Shown in pieces: positions 8,566 to 28,299 of a stretch of 64,000 nt of DNA. Origin of the DNA: Lophium mytilinum (Eukaryota). Below the pieces are notes generated by a model. That model did no database searches. It saw only the letters and a list, made by a program, of their open reading frames with translations, and was not told the DNA's origin. A program made the translations under genes and the position numbers. Each line of letters opens with the position of its first letter. Positions within the stretch are counted from its first letter, which is position 1. Location: NCBI GenBank assembly GCA_010093605.1, contig MU004185.1, forward strand, positions 1,571,334 to 1,635,333, in the 5' to 3' direction.

Positions 8566-10246
8566 ATGACAGACGAGTCCCGGTCGTCGCGCAGAGTTGC
8601 GAACTCTGCTCCTAAACCTCCCGCGCCGGATTCCCACGCACCCACGCCGCTATCCACCTCGACCAGCACCACCACGACGGCGCCGCGACGCCCGCCCAAG
8701 GGCAAGACGCAACGGACGCTGGAAGAGACGCTGGCGCCGCGAGCCTCCAACACGGTCGCGCAGGTCCTGATCCCCACGCGCAACAATGCCCGCAAGCGAC
8801 CTCAGCCCTCGCTCGACGCGCCCGCCGGCCGCTCGAAACCACCCACCAAGGTCTCCGTCGCCCAGCCTCACACGGGGCTGCTGCAGACGACAAACGGCGT
8901 GCAGACTGTGCTCCCGCTACGCGACGATGACATTCACTCTGGCCGCTCGACGCCGCAGACCAATGGCGAGGGTAGCCTGCTCGCGGTGCCCTCGACATCA
9001 CGCAACAAACAGGACAAGCGCACGCTGAGGTCGCAAGACGGCGGATCACGTCTGAAGAGCGACCTCAGCATCTACTTCCCCAACTACGACGACATCATTG
9101 CGGACGCGCCCAAGCAGCCCGGTACGCCTCCTTCGCGCTTCCGTCTGAAGTCCGTCACGCTGACAACGCGCAGAATTCCTCGAGCCAGACTCCCCCATCT
9201 ACATCGTCGATGAAGCCCTCAAGACCCCGAAAGCGCGCAATGCGAGCTCGACACCCGCGCCCAGGACCTCGATTAGCCCGGCGAGGTCGCGGAAGAAGTC
9301 GATTACCTCGCTCCCGAATGGCGTCGCCGGAGCCGCGTCCTCGAGTAAACAACCGCCTGATCGCACCTCGACCCTCTACCAAGTCGTCGACTACACCGCC
9401 AGCGACCGCCATGCGCCTAATGACCCTGCGGCCGACCCCCTCGCCGACACGCACTTCTTCACCGCCCACCGCCGCGCCGAGCGCAAGGAGAAGCAGCTCC
9501 GCAACATCGAGAAGGAGCGCGCCATGCACGAGAAAGTCCAGCTCGAGCGCCTCCTCGAGGGGCTGCAGGGCCCGGACTGGCTGAAAGTGATGGGGATAAC
9601 CGGCGTTACGGACGGCGAGCGGAAAGACTGGGAGCCCAAGCGGGACTACTTCGTTGCGGAGGTGAAAGCGCTGGTGGACAAATTCCGCATCTGGAAAGAG
9701 GAGGAGAAGCGGTTGAAGGCTGAGCGTGAAGCCGCTTTACTCGCGAGAGAGGAAGAAGAGGAGGCGAACAGCAACGAGGACGGCGACAGCCCAATTGAGA
9801 GTGCGGCGGTCCCAAATTCTTCGGATGTTGATGCGTGGGCGGCGCTTCAGCTGCAGACTGAGGCTGCGGCGACGGCGTCGTCGTCGCAGCCGCCGACGAA
9901 ACGGAGTCGGAGACCGGCACATCAGAATTCTTCTTTACTTCTGCCGCCCCCGCCTCTGGAGCCTCCGAAGCCCTTTACGAGCTTCTACGCGAAACCGCAT
10001 CTGCGGGAGGCGGCTATGGGGAAGAGTCGGCATGGTCGAAATGTCACGGCGTTCGGGCAGCCACTACCAGAACCACAGGAAGAGGAGTTCGCGCTACCAC
10101 CAGACTACCTAACCGAAGAGGCGTTGAGAGCACATGCGCGAAAGCGAAGGCGGGTGCGCAGAGACCGAGACAGCGTAGGCGGCAGCGCAAGTACCCCAGT
10201 CGGGAAAGGCAAAGAGAAGGCATCGGACGGAAAGGGGGGTGGATAA
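8566..10246 (+). CDS. SAS4: SAS4-family subunit of the SAS histone acetyltransferase complex (intron ~9122-9172)
   Basis: RTLRSQDGGSRLKSDLSIYFPNY, then DPL.D..F..AHRRAERKEKQLRNIEKERAMHEKVQLERLLEGLQGPDWLKVMGITG, typical of the fungal SAS4 domain. Confidence 0.85.
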
Positions 10247-11520: not shown

Positions 11521-14385
11521 ATGAGTGAGACTTTCCATTGGAGTCTCCCAGGCCTTGACAGAGCTCACTTCACGGCTCTCGCTAACCTCCTCTCCCTTCG
11601 AAATGGCGGGCAAGTCGAAGATGCCCCGCTGCCCGCCGATTTACTAGAAGAGCACGATGAAGACGAGTCAGATGTGGCTAGCGTTAGAACTGCGAAAGCC
11701 GATCAAATTGCTTATTCTGGGCACGATGGCCTAAAAAGGAAGTTTCTGGATTGCCTAGCTGAATTTGCAGCGAACAAGAAAGGCGGGAGGACTGTTGCAA
11801 CCACAGCTATGAAAGAGTCGGAGGATAGTGTGACCTTATGGATTTCACGGAATGAGGGGTTTCCGGAGCTCGACAGATCAGTTTATGATAACTTGAGCGA
11901 GCTGCTGGGGAGGTTGGCCAATAGCAAGGGTAAGCAAGGTACCAAAAAACCACTTCAGAGAACTCGGAGCGATACTTACGTCTGCATGCCTAGGAGATGA
12001 AATTGCCAAGGAAGAACTCTGGAATGAGATGCTCGCATATCATCAGGACCGTATCCAGAGTGACTACATTCCGAGTTTGAGAGCAGATTTCAAGGCTGTG
12101 GGGAACGATGTGCCGATCGACTACAAGCTCTCAGCTTTGCAGCAGCTGGTTTTCGGCGTCGTGAATCCAGGGCAATCTACAATCAACCACTACAGCAAGC
12201 TTATCACAGCCGCTTACGAGCTGCGAATAACGAAGACAGCCGAGGAAACAATGCACATCTCGCCAAATGCTACCTCGAGAACGAAGAAACTATGGGTGGA
12301 TATATGCCTGCTCGCCAGACTCCGAGTCGCCCTCCAAAAGTTTGTAGAGACTGCACACATACTCCCGAGTTTCCACAATGTCACCATCACTCTGCTCGCC
12401 CGAGGCTCGGTTTCGGTCAAGCCTTCTGAACGCCCTCTAGGCTTGAAGCAGATTTTTGATATCCTCAGGCTCGATCTTGATGACTCTACCGTCAAGAGCG
12501 TGATGAATCAAACGTGTACACTCAACCGAGTTCGTCAAGAATTCTCAACACGACAGAAACAGAAGCTCAACGTCCACGCTGAGGTCCAGATGCTGCTGTT
12601 TCTGTGCAGTAGCGAGCCGGCGAATCGGGCTTCATTGCCATACTTTGGATGCAGCAAGTACTGTTGCTTCATGTGTGCGAGATTACTCAAATTTCATGGC
12701 AAGTTTGCGACGAGAGGATGTCATGGGCGCCTCTTTAGGCCATGGACTGTGCCTGAGGCAGCAGGACTTCGGCTTAGTCAAGCTAACCGATTAGTGAGAA
12801 GCTTGATACAACTACAGGAGGACGTCGAGAAAGAACTGAAGTCCAACTTGAAGAGAATCATACGTCAAAAGAGAACTTCAGCTGTTGGTGGGAGCAGCGT
12901 TCAGGCCTACCAAGCTGGAGACACGCGAAAGCGGTCGGACATCCAGCGTCGAGAGCGTGATGCTGAGCAGCAAAGGGTTACTGAGATGTTCAAAAGGTAA
13001 GCGGATACACATGCCCCATGAAGTTACCAACTAGAGAGCAGTTTCATTACAGGGCTAAACACACTAATAGAATGTCCGTTGAAGATACCCAGTCTGTTTC
13101 CCATAGGTCAACTACCACGCGTTCCTCGGAAAACCCCTACGCGGACGATCATCAAGAGCTCGATGACGAACTTGGCGAGTGCCAGGAATGCCCTAGACTG
13201 ACCTCCCGAACGTGCAGCTTTTGCAACAGAGATCTCTTTTGCAGTGAGATCTGCGAGCAGAAGAGATCCGGACCCCACCTCTACACGTGTACCAAGCGCC
13301 CTCTCACGACCGCCGACTCCCTATACAGAAGTCTTGGCAGTGACGTCCTCCCCACAGACGCGGACGTCCTGGAAGACTTCGGCTTCAACCATCTCCCGTC
13401 TTTCGCCGACCAATCCAACCTCATGGGGCTTTACAAAGGTCTATATCTTTCAGACAAGGTGACCGAAGAGGATCTTCACAATTGGCGCACCGAAGGAACC
13501 CTCGTCGCCAACATCAAGGCCTTCTTCTTCCGCATCCCGGAAGCCTATCGCGGCGGCTACTTCCCCTGGTTCTTGGAGCACACCCACATCCTCGAGAAAC
13601 CCCTATCCGGCAAAGAAGCAACCGAGAAAATGGTCGCCACGTTCTTCGACCAAGCGAATTCCTACCTAACCCCCGAAGACCAGGGCAAGAAGCCGCAAGA
13701 ACTGAAACCGGACGCCAAAGCCGCATGCTACTTTATGCTCGCGGAGGTGCTGCACTCTGCGCATCCGAACCCTGTTGAGGAGAACTGGTACACCTTTGGT
13801 TTTTGCACATGCCTTGACGACTATGAAGAAAGGACACTTGGAGGACTGTATCAGAAGCTCCTCATTGGCGACAAACTCTTCCCCGGTGCTGGGTGGAACC
13901 GTGTTTTCAAGATACCCACATTCACAGAATTCTGGCAAGCGTTCGAGGCAGGCTCCCTCATCGAGCTCATGGACTCCTGTGGTCTGAAAGAGGACCAATC
14001 CTCTTTCCGACACCTCGAGTCTTTCCTCTCCACCCCGGCTTCACACCCGTCTGTGTGGGGTCTGAAACAATTTCTAGTAATTAACCAGCCCGCAGAGCAT
14101 CCACCTAGTCCAGCACTGGCAGTTGATTATGGATTCATGAATTGCAGAAGCTTTGAGGAGACGTGTACGCTGATGGAAATATACAAGCGGCTGCTGCAGC
14201 AAGCAGACCCGCTGGATTTGCAGAAAGCATGCCTAGCTGGGAAGCTGTTCGAATTTGCGGAGAAGTATAGTACGATGAAGCCGGAGTGGAGGAGGTTGAT
14301 GGGGAATGTATATCCGTTGCAGGATTTCAACTTAAGTGCAGGACGAGGGTTGGATGGCCCTAAGACGGGAGGATGTTGGAGATGA
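11521..14385 (+). CDS. OTT_1508-like nucleic-acid deaminase fused to a MYND zinc finger and a C-terminal triple-repeat domain (3 exons, ~910 aa)
   Basis: Intron 11930-11993 (phase 1) and intron 12997-13052 or -13070 (phase 2) join ORFs 11521, 12029 and 13018 in frame. Deaminase motifs HAEVQML and FGCSKYCCFMC; MYND CQEC-x7-CSFC-x5-CSEIC-x7-H-x3-C. Confidence 0.85.
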
Positions 14386-15452: not shown

Positions 15453-17311
15453 TCACTCATACCTCGCCAAGATTCTCTCGAGAGGCTCCACCACCTCAGA
15501 GTATACTGCCTTCCTCAACTCATCTTCATTGAGATCTTGCTTCGCTGTCCCAAAATCCCCATGGATGCACCGGTACGTCAAATTGTCCAGATCAAGCCCA
15601 CCCTCTTCGAGAGCCTGTTCCTGCCATTTCTGTGCTGTGTTAAATCTTGTAAAATCATTCTCAAGTCCGTCAGGACCGAGGTATTTGGACCAGAAGAGAC
15701 ATGTGTCCATAGACATATTGAACCACATTTCGAGTATAAGGATTCCTAGGGACAGAAGCGACGACTTGGTACGTTTACGGTTCATATTTGATGTTGTTGG
15801 AATAAGCGCTGCAGTTGTTGGTGGTAAGCTGGAGGGATAGAAGGTACTATCCAGAGATAAAGACCCAAGATCGACTTTGCCTTGTTTGTCGCGGAAGAAA
15901 TATATGTCATCCTTCGTCCAATCCTCTTTGAGCCAAGGACAATGATATAGCTGCAGAACAACTTTTGCCATTGTCAGCGCAATCTCCAGTCTTTGCTGAC
16001 GACGTAGTCCGTACGAGGTAGGATTATTGGTGGACAACGGTGTATCTTGACGGATGAGATCCATGAGCGTGACACTATCGTGCCATTGAGTGTCAACAGC
16101 AATTGTTTCCTGGGAGTGATACAACGTATGGCAGTCGTTGCCATCACTTCGCAGGTACCCTAGGTGTGGTTTGATCGGATCATACTCCTTCAAAGCCGCA
16201 CAGAGGTCTTGAATCTCGATTGCATCTTTTGGTACCATGGACGCGCTTGACAATCGTCTGCTTGTTTCTTGTTGAAATGACACATTTCGGCTATTTCGAT
16301 TGGCGTCTATGGTGCCGATACTTGGTGCCCTCGTTGGACTGGTTGCGGCAACGTCGGGAAGGCGAGACGTAAGTGCCATGTTCTCATCCAGCTCCGCCAT
16401 CTCGATATCAGCAGCGTACCAGTCATCCTCTGGGCCGACGAGGGTGTGAGAGTTTGACCACGATCTCAGTTTTCGCGGAAAGTAGACCTTGAGTTTAAGC
16501 GACTCTGTTGTGGTGTTCCCACTGGACGATGAATACAGGTGGGTTTCTGGTAAGAACAATTTCGAAGAATGAATGGAGGAGCAGTCGCACTGTAAGGACC
16601 GGTAGATAGCGTTGTGTAGGCTAGATGCCTGTCTTCGGAAATGTTCAAACAATGCTGGGACAGTGGTGTTTCGCTTACGCCGCGTAGGTTGGAGCCGATC
16701 GCTGTTCCCAAGAAGCTGTTGTAAGTTGCTGTTGTATCGCTCGAGCGTATCCATAAGGCGCGCCCTCCGTTTCCTATCTAGAACGTAGACAACTCTCTTA
16801 TACTCGAAGCTCAGACGTGAGAGTCCTTTCGCCCTGCTTTGGGACCAATGCGGCTAATAGACGTGTTAGTCTTCTGAACGCTTCGGCCAATCTACATGAT
16901 AAATAGTACAGGACTGACCTTGTCGTCGGTAATGCTCAGCTTCTTCCGAATCTTCTCCAAAATGCCGAGAATGGCTGGTACAGTAATCATGTAGCTTTCG
17001 TACTCCTGCTTTCCTGGGAGTCGTCTCTTTAGCTTTCCTTCTAGATCGGAGTTTTTCCACTGAGGATCATCCGGATCATCTAGCATGCATCCCATGTGGT
17101 AGTCAGAGTCGACGACTGTAGACAGTAGATCTTCAATATGTTGACGGAAGAATATCTGCTGTCGGATGAAGTCGTTGAGAAACCCATTGAAGTCAGTTCG
17201 AAACCTAACCCATTCCTGCATGGTCTCCAAGCCTTCTCCGTAGTGTTCCAATGCGCTAATGATGAGTGGGAATGATCCAAGAATGAGACCCGCAATCTCC
17301 ACGCCTGACAT
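15453..17311 (-). CDS. HeLo-like N-terminal domain + DUF7580-type kinase-C-lobe-like protein (2 exons, ~597 aa)
   Basis: Start MSGVEIAGLILGSFPLIISALEHY. Intron 16854-16918 joins in frame to ORF 15453-16754. C-terminal RLEIALTMAKVVLQLYHCPWLKEDWTKDDIYFF...LLSLGILILEMWF...RCI..DF; no intact kinase catalytic motifs seen. Confidence 0.8.
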
Positions 17312-18290
17312 GTTGACAGCAACCCGATGTTTGCCTTTACTTAGTGGTCTGTCAAAGCGTTCCACTATCAACGGAAGTGCTTGTTGGGCTAAGAAAAGAT
17401 GAACAATCAATCAAGATTCAAACACTGCAATAGGAACACAACTAGAGTGACAAAGGAGCGTATGTAAAATTGTCGTGAACGTGGAGTGCAAAGACAAGGC
17501 GGATGTGTAAGTTTGACAGACAAGGCGGGGGTGGATGTTCGACGGGAAGAGCGGAAGGTGACTGGGGGCAAAAGACATGGACAGCAACCTTAGGATTCGA
17601 CGTGGCGCTACGTCTGACCTGTTTGCTCGTACTATGCTACATTTGAGCCTCTTTCTTATCTCTAGAGTAATACGATGACTTCTCAGGTGCAGGGTTTTCA
17701 GCTACACCACGGAAGACGTATATCCACTGACCACTTGGACATCCTAGGGAAGCGCCTTGTACCACCTCGTGGCTTTTCTGCCTTTACCGGTGAGCTTGAT
17801 TTCCGCAATGATGGATTTGGATGCTTCAATCAACACGGTCGCTAACGCGTTCCCGCTAGCATGTCTAAAGGTTTCAGCCAATCCACGTTGCCCGCTTTAT
17901 CTACTCTACGTTGTATCTCCTGAGTTTGAGCGCCCTAGAAGCTGCATTCGATGTCGTAGTCGACGCTAGTAAGAGAAGCGAGAAGAAAAGTATGGTCCGA
18001 GGGCGCCAAGATTAGAGAGCTTTAGCTTATTTTCGAACAATCATACTAGTACGGTATACTAATATCCCTACCTATGTTTGCCCCGCCTTCATCAACTGAA
18101 CGACAGCCATCAAGGGGCCCAATCTCTGCTTCTTAAGAGCCTCACATATAGGAATCGCGCCCCCACCAACCGAGTGGATTGATAATCGAATGCCTCCCGC
18201 TCTACAATAGTCCCAACTAGCATCAGTCATTTCGATATTAGAAACGTCATACTTCATACTTGATCTTTGAAAACTCAAGGAGCCTGTACA

Positions 18291-21200
18291 ATGACAGAGA
18301 CAGCTCAATCGAATTCAACCGTTGCTACTCTATCCTTGCAATGCACTCAGCGCTTCACAAGCATCAAAAAAGTGATTTCCGAATCATCTACATCCAGCGC
18401 ATTGTCTTTGCCTGAGGGCTTCGTGGCGTCTGCCTTCCTAGATGTGGTGGCGCGTTTTCGAATCTGGACAGGAAACATTGGAGCACTTCAACAAGGAAAA
18501 GCTTCTTTGGACTATCGTATTCGGCATACTCATGTCCACAATGAAGTCATGCGACTCCTCGGCCAAGCTGTACTGGCTTTGAGAGATTGTAAGGTCTCCT
18601 TCACGGATAGCATACCTTGACTTAAAGCGCTGACGGCTTTTGCAGTGGCAGCCATTGTGAACGGGAGTAAAGAGCAACAAACGTGGTATGAAGGGGAAGG
18701 CATAGCGACCGAATTCACCGATAGCGATATTGATAGCGACAGCGATAGCAGCTCGGTAGGGTCGGATGGTATACCTACGCCTGAAGAAGAAGACCCGCGG
18801 CTTGTCACTGAATCCAGTCAGTTGGTAGTGATGTTGGGTGATTTGGTCAAAAGTCTCCTTAAACTATCTATCGTTATTCAGAAGTCTTCACGACGAGGTA
18901 AATTTGCGCGTTCTTCCCGCGAAAAGGCATACGACACGACCTTCGATATTTTCCATACTTTGGAGTCCTTTCCGTACGCTGCCAATAACAGACCTCTTCT
19001 CGAAAAATTGGGAAAAGCAAACGCCCAGCGTCGACAATGGTTGTCGTATCGACGACGGCATCGCGATAGGCTTTCCTCCCATGACGGGTCAACGTTCGGT
19101 CACTTAGAAGACTCGAGTACGGAACCAGCGGAGACCAGGAGTCGGCTGCCAACGGATCTTGCCTCCACCACGTCCTCTTCTTCCCATCCAGCGTTCAGTT
19201 ACATGACTGCAGATAACTCGACTACAGCTACAACATTTTACGACAGCAATAGAGGTACTGATCCACAATTCGGTACTGACGAAGGGTCCTCCGAGATCTC
19301 ATTTTCCGCGTCTTCAGTTTCTGGTAGAGAGAAGACGCCTTTGCAGATCCCTAGCCTTCCTTCGGAGGCAGCCTCAGGGGATCCTTTCGAGTGCCCATTA
19401 TGTTTCGGCATCATAGCTGTTCCAGGATTGCAGTCTTGGATGTAAGTGCTTTACCCTGGAAGTGCGATAGTAAGATTGACTATGCCTTAGAAAGCATGTG
19501 CACGCGGATTTGGCTTCCGACGTTTGCACATTTGAGAACTGCGCTTCTCCACTTTTCGAGAATCGGGTTCAATGGTTTGAGCATGAGATGCAAAGCCATC
19601 GGAGAGCGTGGAGCTGCGTTTTCTGTGATCTATGGACAACCAACTTGAACGACCTCGAAAGTCATTTGCAGGACTAACATGCTGACCGTATTCCTACTGG
19701 AGAAATGCGAGCAATAGCACGTCAGGGGAGCCTTCCGCTGCAGCGTCTATCAGCATCTTGCCCGCTCTGCGACTACGACGCAACGCTAAGAAGTCGCTTA
19801 GAGACATCGGACCTTCCCGAGCAGGTCACAATTAAGGCAGAACAACTACGTAGCCACTTAGGACGTCATCTCGAACAGCTGGCTCTCTTTGTTCTTCCTA
19901 AGAGCGCATTGATGCACGATGGTGAGAACGAGGAAGATGATCAATACTCCAATCCGGGAGACTTGGACTCTGGAGAGCAGGAATATGAACCCCGAGGACT
20001 GGACTTCGAGCTCGACGAAAACTCATACGACATTGCAAGTATTCTTGCCTCTCACTCAGAAAGTACGCCCCATGTGTTACCAGTCGCTCCTGCGCTAGCA
20101 TTGGGCTGGCAGCCGCCTCATGATTTCACTCCTCCGGCGACATACTTCGAAACAGACGATGAAAATCTTACTCCTCGGCGGGAAGAATCGACATTTGGAG
20201 GTGATCTCTTTACCCCCGGCTGGGTAAGAGGCTATGATAGGAACAAGGAAGGGTATTGCGCCCGCTGTGAAGTTGGACACTGGGTGAACATCCCAAGCGG
20301 AGAATACGAGTTCCATCTAACCTATTTACACGGCCTGCCGAATACAGGACTCCCCCTTCCGAGGCCTTCTGTCATCCGGGAGGTGAACGACAGCCCAGGA
20401 ACCTGGGAGGCTTTTTGCGATATATGCTCTGGGTGGCGTATTTTGAGGAAAACTAAACGAGGGTGGAACTGGTGGCGACATTGTCTTACTGTACGTTGAC
20501 AAGAGCCCCTTCTCATAACAATGACTAACTATGTTTCTAGGAACATGACGCAATAATCAGTGCTGTTTCCGTACTCTCACCAAGTGCCCCCGTCATAACC
20601 TTCTCCCCTGAAGGGGAAAGGATGAAAGAAGCCATCGCGGGCATACGCAAATCTGATCTTGAAGCGTTGAAAACGTTGATCCAAAGGGATCCAGCCATCA
20701 CAACCCAATATGACAGCGACTCCAAGTACTTACTGCATTATGCAGCTGAAGTTGGGCAATCTGACTTCGTTCGACACATTTTGGAAATAGTGCGCAGCTT
20801 GGACTTGGCTCATGGACTTTCAGGTGTCTTAAATGCACAGACTATGAAAGGATCTACTCCGATGATGCTCGCAGCAGAACAGGGAAATCAAGAAGTAGTG
20901 GAGTGTTTGCTTCGAGAAGGCGCCCGTCTTGACATCGCTTCCAGGGACGGCAAAAACGTCTTAGACTACGCGTCCCATGCCGGGTACACTACGATTGCAG
21001 ACTTACTGATCCGGAACGGCGCTCAGGTCAATGATTCTAGAACATTCCGTAAGGTCTACCTAGGTTGCCTCGATGACCCACTGCTCAGCAAGCCGCATCT
21101 CCAAATTGAACCACGATCAGAGAACCTAACGCTCTCTTGGAACGAATTAATGGACCTTGCGTCACGAAACGACGCCACCGGGATACGAGAATGTCTCAAA

Positions 21201-21992
21201 AAGGACATTGACGTTGAAGACACAGCGAAAGACGGGAGCACTGCTTTGATGATCGCTATGTCGAAAGGAAACACTGATGCGGCCGAAGTTCTGCTTGGAA
21301 ACGGAGCCAACCTGAATGCCACGAACTCGAAAGGATGGACGGCACTGATGACAGCAGTCCGCGATGGCAATCTGTCGGTGGTGGACTTTTTGCTGAGTCA
21401 CGGTGCAGATGCTAACCATCTGTCGCCTGATCACTGGACCGCATTGGCGGAAGCCGCGCAAAGTGGACACATCGATATTTTGAAACTGCTGCTTGAGCAC
21501 GACGCAGATACCGAGGCTCGATCGTCTCATGATTGGACCCCTCTGATGCATGCATGTTATCGAGGCGACAAAGCTTGTGTCGACAAGTTGCTTGATGCAG
21601 GCGCTGAAATGGAGAGCGGGTCTCAGCGCGACGAGACTCCGATGCTCTTAGCTGCTGCTGGAGGACACTTTGAAATAGTTCGAGCTCTTCTTGAAGCGGG
21701 CGGTTTGCCCGATGCTGCTTGGGCGCGCAAGATGGTTCCATCAGGATTGCATGTCCATCAAACGACAGATTTTATTGAACGCACATATCAGCTAGGTTGG
21801 ACACCTCTCATGATAGCTTGTCAAAACGGGCATGAAGATGTAGTACGGCTGTTGTTGGAGGCAGGCGCGAACTGCGAACCACGGAGTCCTTTGAACAGGA
21901 CCGCCATGGAGATTGCAAAGGAGAACGGCCGAACTTCGATTTTAGTTGTTTTGGAGTCTCTTCGCTCGACCAGCTCAAACATCTTAGGATAA
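18291..21992 (+). pseudogene. Multidomain gene (helical N-terminus + C2H2 zinc fingers + Rua1_C/DUF4451 + ankyrin repeats) with one in-frame stop
   Basis: Introns 18589-18645, 19442-19490 and 20491-20540 join four ORFs in frame. Motifs: RFRIWTGNIGA...SLDYR; FECPLC...W.KHV..DL...VCTFENC...WFEHE...H; GDLFTPGWVRG...KEGYC..C; about 10 ankyrin repeats (e.g. GWTALMTAV). In-frame TAA at 19675-19677. Confidence 0.8.
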
Positions 21993-22606: not shown

Positions 22607-24649
22607 CTACTGGATCCCAGCCGTTTTCAAAATCCCGTGAACAATCTTTCCAATTGCCCAGATCTTCTCTTCCTCGAACTTCCTCGCGACTATTTGAACG
22701 CCTACTGGAGCGCCATCATAGATTTCAGCGTCATCTAGCGTAGAGCTTTGGTCAACTTTGGCGTCATGGTTGATGCTCGGTAATACTAACATGCTTTCCA
22801 GTTTTTAGCATCCACGTCATTAAGCGGCGTGTAATTGGGGTCCGCCTTGTCGATGGACTTGTTGGCCTTGGTGACTGGAATTACAACAACGCTGTAGTCC
22901 ATCAAATTGATGACTTCAGTATAAGCTTCAAAATGTCAGCGTCTAGTTTTCGCCCGATCTTCTCAACTCACCTGTGTGATAGAACTTTCCTGGGATAACT
23001 GCGGCATGTGGAGCGACGGGCATGATTACTGCATCAACAAGCTGCCCTTGTAAGCTGTTAGTGGTGACTTCAAGAAAACTCCATCTGGAAGAGTCTCACT
23101 TACCATCATCATCCGCAGTGGAATTCCAATAGTCTGAGTATTTTGCTTCGTAATCTCGTCCTTCGATAGTCAAACTCTGATAAGTAAGAAGTGACATCGG
23201 ATCCTTCAGACGGAAAGTTTCTCGAAGAGGCGCCACGAGAGGTTCTCCAGAGAGATCAAGCTGCCGGTGAATGTCGTGGCCTCCGTCTGCCTTCAGAAAC
23301 GCCAGCTATTTGTCTGTGAGCTTCAAATGATGGTTATCGTGATGTATGGCATCTGCACTTACATGAACCCGTTTAGCAGTCTGCTGATCCGGGGGTTTCC
23401 ATTCTACGACCTGGTGAGAAAACTCCTGTAAGCGCAGTTCCCAAAATCGGACTATGACTGGTTCTTTTACCTGATGGCCAACACTTTTGACAGCATCTAC
23501 CACAAGTCTGAGCCCACGCGCAATTGGTGGTTGAGGGGTAACCACGCCGTCAGTCCACAGGATTCCAAGCTTGAGTGGTTTATTGTCATTGGCTTTTCCA
23601 TCCCCTGCTGCTCTTGAAATAGTCTCTTCAACACGATCCTCCCGCCAAGGCATCGGTACCACGTTCGGATCTCTGAGCCACGGCTGGGTCAGCACGATTG
23701 AACGAAAAACGAGATGTATAGCCTCCAGAGAAGTGCCCATAACCCCGACGGTAGATGCATATGTCGTTTCTCCTGGAATCACGTTCGCCACGTCTCGATA
23801 CGATAACCTCGTGTGAGTTGGTTTGAGAGAGAATATTCCGTTGAACGCTGCCGGAATTCTCAGAGATCCCCCAATATCAGTTCCAAAGCCCACAACACTG
23901 CCTCGCAGAGCTTGAAGGGCTCCTTCTCCTCCAGAAGATCCCCCACATGATAGGTTCTGGTTGTTTGGGTTCAGAGTCTGGCCTATGAGATTGTTGACGG
24001 TTTCACCAAGGAGGAGCGTCTGGGGTAGACTAGTCTTGCAGTACAAAACTGCCCCCAGACTAAGGAGCTCGGACACAACCTGACTGTTGACCTTGTGTAT
24101 GAGCTCCTTGTCCTTGCGGCCTTCATAGGTATCGATCCATCCAATGTATCCCATTGTGGTGTCATTGCCTTCGACGTGGAATTGGTCCTTGAGACTGATT
24201 GGAAGCCCATGGAGTGGCCCCATGGTTTTTCCTTTTTCTTTGTAGTACTCGTCTAGCTCCTTAGCTCTTTCAATAGCCTGCGAAAAGAATATCTCGTGCA
24301 AGCAGTTGTTCTATTTAAGTAAGCTTGAGCAAAGAGGAGCAAGAATGGGGTGCGATCGGCCTACAATCTGATGCGCAATGGCTGCGGCTTTACAGAAGGC
24401 CAGTGTGGTTTCCATCGCACTGAGTTCTCCTCTCTGCACTTTCCCGACAATACAAGTTGCATCTTGCCGTATTATATCGATCTCCTGAGCCTCGAGATAA
24501 TGGTCGAAGAAGGCACCAGTGAGGTCCCTTTGCTTAGCAGCTTTGGCTAGCTCGATTTCCGATAAACGCCATTCGGGAGCTATTTTGGCTAAAGTTTCGC
24601 TCGTCTTCTTTTCGGCCTTAGCCTTCCATGAGTCTTTAGGGACCAGCAT
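22607..24649 (-). CDS. Amidase-signature family enzyme (acetamidase/general amidase-like), multi-exon
   Basis: GPLHGLPISLKDQF, CGGSSGGEGAL and GFGTDIGGSLRIPAAFNG motifs; C-terminal GAPVGVQIVARKFEEEK. Confidence 0.93.
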
Positions 24650-26832: not shown

Positions 26833-28299
26833 ATGGGCAGCTTAATGATAGACCGTCGAGTTGCAATCATCGGTGCCGGGACGTCGGGTCTGGCAGCTGC
26901 AAAGTAATGTCCAGCCTAATTTCTGGATAACAATAATCTCCTGACTGGGACTTTTAGATCTCTCATCGCAGAAGACTACTTCTGCACCATAGATGTCTTC
27001 GAGCAGCGAGGATCTATTGGCGGGCTGTGGAACTATACTGCAGCGGCAAATGAAGAGAACCACGAAACGAATATTCCCGAGGATTACGCCCACGTCGATA
27101 TTCCTCAAAGCTTCACGCTGAAAAATGTTATCTCTCCGATATACGAGGATCTAGAGGCGAACATACCACGTACGCTTATGCGATACTCCGATTTTCCGTT
27201 CCCGGATGATCTGCAACTGCTACCGCAGCACCATCAGATTCTTAGCTATATCCAGGCCTATGGCCAAGAAGTGCTGGATAGGGTTCGCATGAGCATGCTG
27301 GTCGTACAAATCAAGCCTGAAATAGAGGGATGGGAGATTAAAAGCTGTAGTCTGGCTACCGGTACGACTACTCGTGAGCGATATGGAGCCGTCATCATTG
27401 CTACAGGCCAGTATTCGGTGCCTTGGACGCCGGACTTACCTGGTCTCAGAGAATGGACCGTATCGCACCCTGGCACCATCATACATTCGAAGTGCTTCAG
27501 AACGGCCGAAAACTTTATCAAGAGAAGAGTAATTGTCGTCGGTTCTGGTGTATCTGGTCTTGACATCTCCAGCCGCATTCTCCCATTATGTAATAAGCTA
27601 TATCTCTCGAGTAGGCGCAGCCCACAACTTCTGGAAGATTTCCCAGTAGACCTGCTAGCTAATCTGCGACCCCCGATTGCGCGACTTTGCCCTGATAGAA
27701 GAGCAGTTCAGTTTGAAGATGACACAGAAGCAACAGATGTCGACTGTATAATCTTCTGCACCGGCTATCTTCATTCCATGCCCTTTTTGAGGAAGCTTGA
27801 ACCGAATCCGATCGAAAGCGGGCATAAAGTGAATCACACATATCAGCACTTATTCTACGCGCCGAAGCCGACTTTGGCCTTCCTTGCGTTACCGAGAATA
27901 ATTGCTTTCACGGTGGCCGAAGCACAAGCCGCTGTTGTTGCGCGAGTGTATGCAAAACGATTGCAACTACCGTCTATACATGAGATGCAAGCTTGGGAAA
28001 CACCAACGAGCGAACGAACAAGCGAACGAGATCCCGATGCTCGCCGCTTTCATCATTTTCAGTATCCCGAAGATGCGGAATACATAAAAATGCTCATTGA
28101 CTGGGCCTCGCGGGCTGAGATTCGACCGGGCTTAGACAATAATGGAAAAGGTAGATTACCAAGGCCATGGGGGCCGCACGAACATTGGCAGAGGGCGCGA
28201 TCGTTCGCAATTAGAAGAGCATTCAAGGAGCAGGGCAAGGACCGAGTCAATGTCAAGACACTTGAAGATCTGGGGTTCGAAGGACCAATAACAAAGTGA
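26833..28299 (+). CDS. Flavin-containing monooxygenase (fungal FMO1/thiol-specific monooxygenase-like; intron 26904-26957)
   Basis: VAIIGAGTSGLAAAK (FAD binding), FEQRGSIGGLWNY, IIHSKCFR (FMO motif region), VIVVGSGVSGLDI (NADPH binding), IFCTGY. Confidence 0.92.

Follow-up and report, generated by a model that had tools for sequence, protein, structure and literature searches.

Regulated cell death in fungi is at present explained by a small number of modules, i.e., NOD-like receptors (NLRs) acting on HeLo or HELL effectors via amyloid motifs, and pairs of a protease and a gasdermin. The gene pair described here lies in a stretch of 64,000 nucleotides of Lophium mytilinum DNA (assembly GCA_010093605.1, contig MU004185.1, positions 1,571,334..1,635,333 of the forward strand), which is referred to as the window and within which all positions are numbered. 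It consists of a left gene, L, and a right gene, R, facing away from each other across a short spacer. The product of L combines a predicted helical bundle at the N-terminus with a C-terminal DUF7580 domain, and that of R joins a helical core to C2H2 zinc fingers, a Rua1_C domain and an ankyrin array. A sequence-only reading of the window had proposed that the two genes form a cell death or non-self recognition module with a layout like that of MLKL.

Among the described systems, pairs of the HET-S/NWD2 type resemble this locus in featuring adjacent, divergently transcribed genes (for L and R, 23 of 23 testable groups and 44 of 50 loci, see below). In both cases, one protein carries an N-terminal helical domain that is, or for L may be, membrane-seeking, and the other joins a constant N-terminal module to a variable repeat or nucleoside triphosphatase (NTPase) part; indeed, paralogs of the R core include NACHT-ankyrin proteins. 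They differ in that no amyloid motif is common to L and R (hhalign probability 0.7%), that L has no Pfam HeLo match and a predicted pseudokinase in place of the prion-forming domain, and that R of the window lacks an NTPase. With MLKL (four-helix bundle, brace and pseudokinase) and the plant MLKLs, L shares the order of its parts in the model, i.e., a helical bundle, linker helices and a C-terminal kinase fold whose catalytic residues are not conserved. Moreover, the best kinase matches of L are of the tyrosine kinase-like (TKL) type (BRAF, TNNI3K), the group that also includes MLKL. In contrast, the bundle of L showed neither a sequence nor a fold match to MLKL among the matches listed, no activating, RIPK3-like kinase partner of L is evident, and L, which is known here from sequence and models, has a dedicated head-to-head zinc-finger partner, whereas MLKL has none.

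A further point of comparison is the SltA/SltB system of Aspergillus nidulans cation stress, which is restricted to the Pezizomycotina and places a C2H2 zinc-finger protein under the control of a protein with a pseudokinase (PMC4557415). The combination of a pseudokinase protein with a C2H2 protein is thus common to both systems, but SltB features a protease domain, which is missing in the L family. One distant protein, P0332 (Conoideocrella luteorostrata, 1990 amino acids), has both DUF7580 and a Peptidase_S8 subtilisin domain according to precomputed annotation, a layout reminiscent of SltB (pseudokinase and protease) and of the protease-bearing regulators of fungal gasdermins. The slt genes are not known to be adjacent. 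Finally, L is a clear member of the Pfam family DUF7580 (PF24476), and R orthologs are annotated as acuF-like C2H2 (PF26082). Both families are without known function, and an obligatory pairing of the two is described in no paper found.

Conserved pairing of the two gene families

The pairing of L and R is far beyond chance. The sequence-only reading had suggested examining whether DUF7580 genes are recurrent divergent neighbours of genes carrying the RF.IW.GNIGA...SLDYR domain, and this turned out to be the case. Scanning of metagenome contigs with the L alignment yielded 66 loci, forming 43 groups at a nucleotide identity of at least 90%, and 23 of these groups were testable, i.e., contained the N-terminus of L and 2 kb or more of DNA upstream. 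In all 23, tblastn with the R ortholog of Lophiostoma detected an R-core gene upstream on the opposite strand, separated from L by 339-1319 bp. A pairing was likewise seen in three shorter groups, and the remaining 509,802 bases of flank contained no tblastn match to the R core. Hidden Markov models built for the L bundle and for the R core detected a divergent R core at 44 of 50 bundle-bearing loci. Five of the six unpaired bundle loci (L004, L024, L027, L050, L060) possess just 221-1366 bases upstream; at L060, L is matched only from residue 203, with a weak partial bundle match and no R core. At two additional loci, L057 and L059, the match to L is confined to its C-terminal part, the gene starts are unseen, and neither bundle nor R core is present; these two loci and L060 are uninformative on the pairing. 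L030 was missed by the first queries and proved to be paired once more sensitive ones were used.

At the sixth unpaired locus, L049 (2-3309, plus strand), a single open frame (691-1944) comprises R-core fingers, a linker and the bundle of L, with the DUF7580 part downstream on the same strand. The bundle starts there with ..PASGIEIAG.. and lacks a methionine of its own, and the N-terminus of R is cut off by the start of the contig. L049 thus represents a natural R-L gene fusion.

The same linkage occurs in seven of the eight named species present in the hit lists of both L and R. Adjoining locus tags were observed for Calogaya (005028/005029), Vezdaea (000570/000571), Trichoglossum (004293/004295) and Alyxoria (007255/007253), and L and R are situated on contigs of equal length in Lophiostoma, Tirmania and Terfezia boudieri. 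For the eighth species, the L and R hits stem from two different assemblies.

Comparison of 24 loci revealed no third shared gene: only the L and R families were common to all of them, the next most common families being present in at most four loci and several of these representing open frames which overlap L or R, some on the opposite strand. Furthermore, the distance matrices of L and R are correlated (Spearman 0.675, reached by 0 of 2000 permutations), part of which must reflect shared species history, and the nearest neighbour is the same for L and R in 18 of the 24 loci. Ortholog pairs from Pezizomycetes to Dothideomycetes exhibit identities of 30-62% for L and 35-43% for R, and the pairing persists across paralog lineages with only 22-35% identity. 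The profile of the L bundle retrieved 3967 clusters (50% identity) at an expectation value (E) of at most 0.001 among 1.84 billion representatives. Pfam annotation of the 57 listed representatives longer than 280 amino acids assigned DUF7580 alone to 38 and nothing to 19, all of the latter being shorter than 500 amino acids. Several clearly differing L/R pairs stem from contigs of the same metagenome assembly series (e.g., L003/L040/L058; L047/L051/L056), which suggests that single fungal genomes may hold several paralogous pairs.

Gene structure and transcription

The head-to-head arrangement read from the window, including a spacer of about 980 bp, was recovered in full. The features of both genes are as follows:

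15453..17311, minus strand: left gene (L), one intron, product of 597 amino acids
17311..16919, minus strand: exon 1 of L, amino acids 1-131, N-terminal helical bundle
16854..16918, minus strand: intron of L, 65 nt, GT..AG, phase 0, read from the sequence
16853..15453, minus strand: exon 2 of L, from the sequence
16596..16853, minus strand: linker helices of L, amino acids 132-217 (helices 142-155, 158-181 and 199-217), from the full-length model
15465..16646, minus strand: DUF7580 domain of L, amino acids 201-594, Pfam PF24476
15453..15455, minus strand: stop codon of L, from the sequence
17312..18290, no strand: divergent spacer, 979 bp from ATG to ATG
18291..21992, plus strand: right gene (R), 4 exons and 3 introns, 1181 codons
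18291..18588, 18646..19441, 19491..20490 and 20541..21992, plus strand: exons of R, from the sequence and spliced contigs
18291..19073, plus strand: N-terminal helical core of R with the RFRIWTGNIGA..SLDYR motif, an acidic linker and the LGKANAQRRQWLSYRRRH motif; contains the intron 18589..18645
18685..18747, plus strand: alternative intron of R, 63 nt, GT..AG, in frame, inside the acidic Asp/Ser-rich linker, joint 18684>18748
19377..19902, plus strand: C2H2 finger cluster of R, three tandem fingers and the CPLCDY..HLGRHLEQLALFVLP finger; contains the intron 19442..19490
19675..19677, plus strand: in-frame TAA of R, codon 427
20203..20484, plus strand: Rua1_C domain of R, Pfam PF14616, E 6.4e-10, 39.8 bits against a cut-off of 27
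20491..20540, plus strand: intron 3 of R, 50 nt, joint present in run X3
20724..21951, plus strand: ankyrin array of R, Ank_2 E 1.4e-67, Ank E 7.2e-60

The contigs of the sequencing run X3, whose identity as RNA is a guess although they are spliced, bridge all three introns of R exactly (joints 18588>18646, 19441>19491 and 20490>20541). As they skip just the three predicted introns, R is considered to be transcribed and spliced as modelled. The transcript extends into the spacer to at least position 18104 (spliced contig 18104-18588). One X3 contig with a depth of 2 additionally uses the 63-nt intron, which may represent an isoform without 21 residues. The 3' part of L is covered by X3 contigs as well, so that at least this part of L is transcribed; the run is without cover over 16435-18023, comprising the 5' half of L, the L intron and most of the spacer, a gap which is uninformative on expression. 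The spacer presumably represents a bidirectional promoter. It is poorly kept relative to the loci L001 and L002, with 133 of 1052 aligned columns identical, and a conserved promoter block sought among the spacers of the window, L001 and L002 amounted to a single block of 8 nt. A search for paralogs of L and R elsewhere in the window found none.

The ordinary neighbours of the pair lie outside the module. They encode a protein with a SAS4 domain (9164-10246), an amidase (23306-24310) and a flavin monooxygenase (26920-28299), with the neighbour on the amidase side being common only to the closest relatives, L001 and L005. About 1 kb past the 3' end of L, at 11897-14385 on the plus strand, an OTT_1508-like deaminase domain (E 1e-18) is encoded in an open reading frame that overlaps with the next one, a frame of 466 amino acids without Pfam match. 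OTT_1508-like deaminases are predicted toxin-type nucleic-acid deaminases which are expanded in fungi.

The left protein

The spliced product of L is identical (100%) to the database protein P0004, a hypothetical protein of L. mytilinum with 597 amino acids, and begins with MSGVEIAGLILG. The hydrophobic N-terminal helix noticed in the sequence (amino acids 3-28) is a property of the whole family: 28 of 28 members feature a stretch of membrane-span hydrophobicity (at least 1.6 in a 19-residue Kyte-Doolittle window) which starts within the first 8 residues, with a median of 1.96 compared to 0.65 for the best window elsewhere. AlphaFold2 modelling of the N-terminal 131 amino acids on 28 diverse relatives predicted a helical bundle with a predicted local distance difference test score (pLDDT) of 87.8 and a predicted template modelling score (pTM) of 0.79, in agreement with the helical fold initially assumed. 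Within the bundle, the hydrophobic helix is packed inside at a pLDDT above 90. No Pfam family was matched by this part. A model of full-length L (23 orthologs, pLDDT 74) features long N-terminal helices at residues 3-28, 34-63, 70-97 and 103-124, then the linker helices and finally a mixed alpha/beta domain. By analogy, the linker helices (amino acids 132-217) would be located where MLKL possesses its 'brace'.

The only Pfam match in L is DUF7580 (amino acids 201-594, E 3.8e-21, 76.5 bits against a cut-off of 27), which precomputed annotation also assigns to 78 of 78 L homologs. In Foldseek, the top matches of this C-terminal domain were PknB, BRAF and JAK2 with E of about 1e-3 (best 9.4e-4). 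VIA-align gave Z values of 10-11 to TNNI3K, BRAF and MerTK and of 10-10.5 to the pseudokinases of RNase L and PAN3, the best match being TNNI3K (Z 10.9, root-mean-square deviation 4.2, 153 aligned residues). Z values of at least 5 were obtained for 991 of 1000 aligned chains, and the best 50 were all kinases or pseudokinases. The catalytic positions were mapped via a non-significant HMMER alignment to the plant kinase 5xd6_A (E 1.8), so that the mapping is approximate; in this alignment, 'PW-LKEDWTKDDIYF' lined up with 'PHVIHRDIKSSNVLL' and 'SLLSLGILILE' with 'DVYSFGVVLLE'. On this approximate basis, the column of the HRD aspartate contains D, N, E, A, T or V among the 23 orthologs, in which neither a DFG motif nor a conserved beta3 lysine was found. 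Because a kinase fold is combined with varying catalytic positions, the models identify the DUF7580 domain as a pseudokinase, i.e., a predicted kinase fold without conserved catalytic residues. Thus, both the kinase-like region without catalytic motifs and the MLKL-like layout that had been read from the sequence, with a helical bundle preceding a catalytically unconserved kinase fold, were recovered.

The right protein and its variable relatives

The proposed layout of R likewise stood up, as the protein consists, in this order, of a helical region with the RFRIWTGNIGA..SLDYR and LGKANAQRRQWLSYRRRH motifs, three tandem C2H2 fingers joined by short linkers, a fourth finger (CPLCDY..HLGRHLEQLALFVLP), Rua1_C and the ankyrin array. 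Among 12 orthologs, the core motifs vary little or not at all, and the same motif recurs in the partner genes of distant loci. The fingers were read from the translation, and their Cys/His columns are also invariant or nearly so among the 12 orthologs. Orthologs of 1090-1263 amino acids were found in Dothideomycetes, Eurotiomycetes, Lecanoromycetes, Sordariomycetes, Geoglossomycetes, Arthoniomycetes and Pezizomycetes. Precomputed annotation assigns PF26082, 'acuF-like C2H2 zinc finger', to R orthologs, but a direct Pfam scan did not match this family on the same proteins; one relative is named 'Oxidoreductase acuF-like C2H2 typ...' in UniRef. In a language-model atlas, the N-terminal part of R retrieved only unnamed clusters (0.89).

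Behind the core, the relatives of R differ widely. According to precomputed Pfam annotation, the C-termini of R-core paralogs include ankyrin, TPR, NACHT with ankyrin, Pkinase, GTPase, Zn2Cys6, methyltransferase, homeobox, Myb, BAG and MIF4G domains. Within the paired loci, R genes end in Ank and Pkinase, a 15-repeat ankyrin array, DUF7104 and Ank, BAG, GYF, ULD_2 (ubiquitin-like) and Ank, or TPR. In P0252, the R core is followed by a NACHT domain with Walker A motif and then by ankyrin repeats. The statement that the system has no NTPase therefore holds for R of the window, since neither this protein nor its orthologs have a NACHT or NB-ARC match in Pfam, but not for all R-core paralogs, some of which are fused to NACHT (P0252, P0255, P0288).

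Two R-core proteins run into a kinase domain with non-canonical motifs, with LRG for HRD and SFG for DFG in L032, and HGD and DFN in P0266. The frame in L032 (6532-8067, minus strand) contains in-frame stops, which represent introns or decay. Going by these motifs, L may be paired here with additional pseudokinases or with atypical kinases.

A premature stop codon in R

The remark in the sequence-only reading that R would have to be 'stop-repaired' was correct, as exon 3 contains a single in-frame TAA (19675-19677) at codon 427 of 1181, one residue ahead of the second histidine of finger 3. It is identical in the DNA runs X1 and X2, which may be the source of the assembly itself, and in the spliced X3 contig over 19491-20310. 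In L001, the nearest relative, the codon reads CAG (Gln), and other R orthologs feature Q, S, E, A or V. On the 3' side of the TAA, 754 sense codons stay open, and the similarity to the Lophiostoma ortholog is 64% and 54% after the stop and 56% before it. As the TAA is present in all runs, relatives possess a sense codon and the downstream frame is open and equally similar, these sequence comparisons identify it as a recent nonsense mutation and not an assembly error. The truncated protein of 426 amino acids would retain the core and the first two complete fingers and lose finger 4, Rua1_C and the ankyrin array. Hence, the module is probably altered or disabled in this strain.

Predicted interaction of the two proteins

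Complex prediction was carried out for the Lophiostoma pair, using residues 1-260 of R and full-length L together with three controls. The L/R complex scored 0.60, 0.60 and 0.64, compared to 0.00 for the best of the three controls, which corresponds to the verdict 'weak support'. At least 49% of contacts are common to the runs, with a partner pLDDT of at least 66. In calibration, 51 of 78 solved complexes attained the mark for complex scores, as did 2 of 108 mismatched pairs; however, just 5 of those 78 attained it with a score of up to 0.60, a range that also held every one of the 4 mismatches (of 180) that passed. The score is read as a modest increase because the prior from linkage and fusion is already high. 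Direct binding of L and R thus becomes modestly more probable by the prediction. The check by complex prediction and Foldseek put forward with the sequence-only reading therefore yielded weak support for a complex, but no HeLo or MLKL match for the bundle among the matches listed.

Function of the pair and alternative explanations

The pair belongs to a large and ancient two-gene family of filamentous ascomycetes, in which L and R are transcribed divergently from a short spacer, inherited and duplicated as a unit and, at L049, fused. In our estimation, there is about an even chance that it constitutes a cognate regulator/effector module with an MLKL-like layout. According to this explanation, the R core would bind L, the variable part of R would sense or recruit something, and the core would couple this event to the state of L, which in turn would relay it via its pseudokinase switch and membrane-seeking bundle. 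Membrane damage or cell death as output, as for MLKL and HeLo proteins, is suggested by analogy of the layout only. The combination of a constant N-terminal module, variable sensor-like domains and one constant partner gene corresponds to the logic of fungal NLR/effector pairs, and the R core accordingly resembles a constant adaptor on variable sensors. A more far-reaching version is possible, but tentative: the R core could represent a new adaptor domain of fungal innate-immunity-like receptors, plugging many sensors into one MLKL-like executioner that is always encoded head-to-head.

Several results weigh against such a module. Profiles of HeLo, SesA and PigL_N gave no match in eight full-length L orthologs up to E 10, and those of HeLo and HeLo-like domains (PF14479, PF17111, PF17107) matched only once among 28 N-terminal domains of L, to HeLo with E 0.067 and thus below any cut-off. 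In Foldseek, the bundle matched nothing in the PDB at E of at most 0.001, the best hits being Dps/ferritin-like bundles (E 1.6), and VIA-align against 48,161 chains yielded generic bundles, with a designed helical protein as best match (Z 9.0). Comparison of the N-terminal domain profiles of L and R by hhalign gave a probability of 0.7% and thus no homology. As these parts are not homologous, a shared templating motif of the HET-S/NWD2 type is missing. In addition, the complex score lies exactly at the weak level of the tool, which provided no interface output. Likewise, kinase-bearing R partners as analogues of RIPK3 were rejected for now, both inspected proteins being without canonical motifs. 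Furthermore, the good conservation of this ortholog pair across classes is more in keeping with a regulatory housekeeping role than with a non-self locus that evolves fast, and tandem C2H2 fingers with Rua1_C are typical of transcription factors, so that R may act on DNA and not as a sensor.

The HeLo-like label originally given to the N-terminus of L is accordingly not adopted here, as there is no Pfam HeLo match and the fold searches are indecisive. A single lead comes from a language-model search, in which the N-terminal part of L neighbours a HeLo cluster (0.93, 180 of 256 features). The coiled-coil domains of plant coiled-coil NLRs (9h2l_A, 9fyc_A) reached Z 6.0 to the bundle, level with many unrelated chains, and MLKL and HET-s are not among the best 50 VIA-align matches, which does not decide homology. 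The search of the N-terminal domain profile against PDB sequences produced nothing relevant, with a designed claudin as best match (E 0.0058). According to a 2025 review, some fungal HeLo-like domains do occur on proteins with a kinase or pseudokinase (PMC12881547). On the basis of the models, L would therefore be described as built like MLKL, but is not filed as a member of the HeLo or MLKL family.

The main rival to the regulator/effector module, which we consider unlikely but serious, is that R represents a DNA-binding C2H2/Rua1_C factor which L, as a pseudokinase scaffold associated with the membrane, retains, processes or releases on a signal, within a stress or developmental pathway without cell death. 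The three tandem short-linker fingers with a fourth finger and Rua1_C fit such a function, as does the strong conservation of the ortholog pair across classes. Many R-core paralogs are moreover named 'zinc finger transcription factor ace1' in their source or carry Zn2Cys6, homeobox or Myb domains, but these source names are automatic, and the paralogs with NACHT, TPR, ankyrin, GTPase, BAG and kinase-like domains fit poorly. The hydrophobic first helix of L could serve as a membrane anchor, although a simple signal anchor is at odds with its internal position in the L049 fusion and its packing inside the bundle. A precedent exists in the Pezizomycotina-only pathway from a pseudokinase to a C2H2 protein, SltB/SltA (PMC4557415); sltA and sltB appear to belong to different families. 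Besides, 3967 clusters would be unusual for a single housekeeping pathway.

It is considerably less probable that L and R are co-regulated neighbours which only share a bidirectional promoter and whose products do not act on each other. Divergent pairs with a shared promoter are common in fungi, and the complex prediction is weak. The lack of a conserved promoter block in the window, L001 and L002 is also listed on this side. On the other hand, mere co-regulation hardly accounts for a pairing that survives at 22-35% identity with no other conserved neighbour at 24 loci, for the co-diversification of the two families, for the natural fusion at L049 or for complex scores of 0.60 compared to 0.00 in controls. 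The weakest explanation, a polymorphic allorecognition (het) locus under balancing selection as implied by the non-self recognition part of the sequence-only reading, is very improbable, since the orthologs of L and R are one-to-one and evolve slowly across several ascomycete classes and all three runs with this stretch (two of which may be its source) are identical to the window, even though R has a null-like allele in this strain and known fungal incompatibility systems typically feature genes paired side by side and helical domains that target membranes (PMC12881547).

Implications

No paper on DUF7580 or describing the L/R pairing was found in a search outside of which most subscription journals lie, and literature retrieved for AN8302, the L ortholog of Aspergillus nidulans and thus an entry point into a model organism, was irrelevant. 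There is a reasonable chance that the pair represents a distinct signalling system. With the pairing, two families of 'unknown function', DUF7580 with its N-terminal bundle and the acuF-like zinc-finger core, emerge as an obligate gene pair, which offers a testable candidate for the coupling of varied sensor domains to a pseudokinase switch in fungi. If the more far-reaching version with the R core as an adaptor domain holds true, thousands of pairs in the Pezizomycotina would make up a second system of regulated cell death or defence signalling, working independently of amyloid templating, beside the NLR/HeLo and protease/gasdermin systems. Even if the output should be ordinary transcriptional signalling, thousands of unannotated fungal genes would gain a partner and a first hypothesis on their function.

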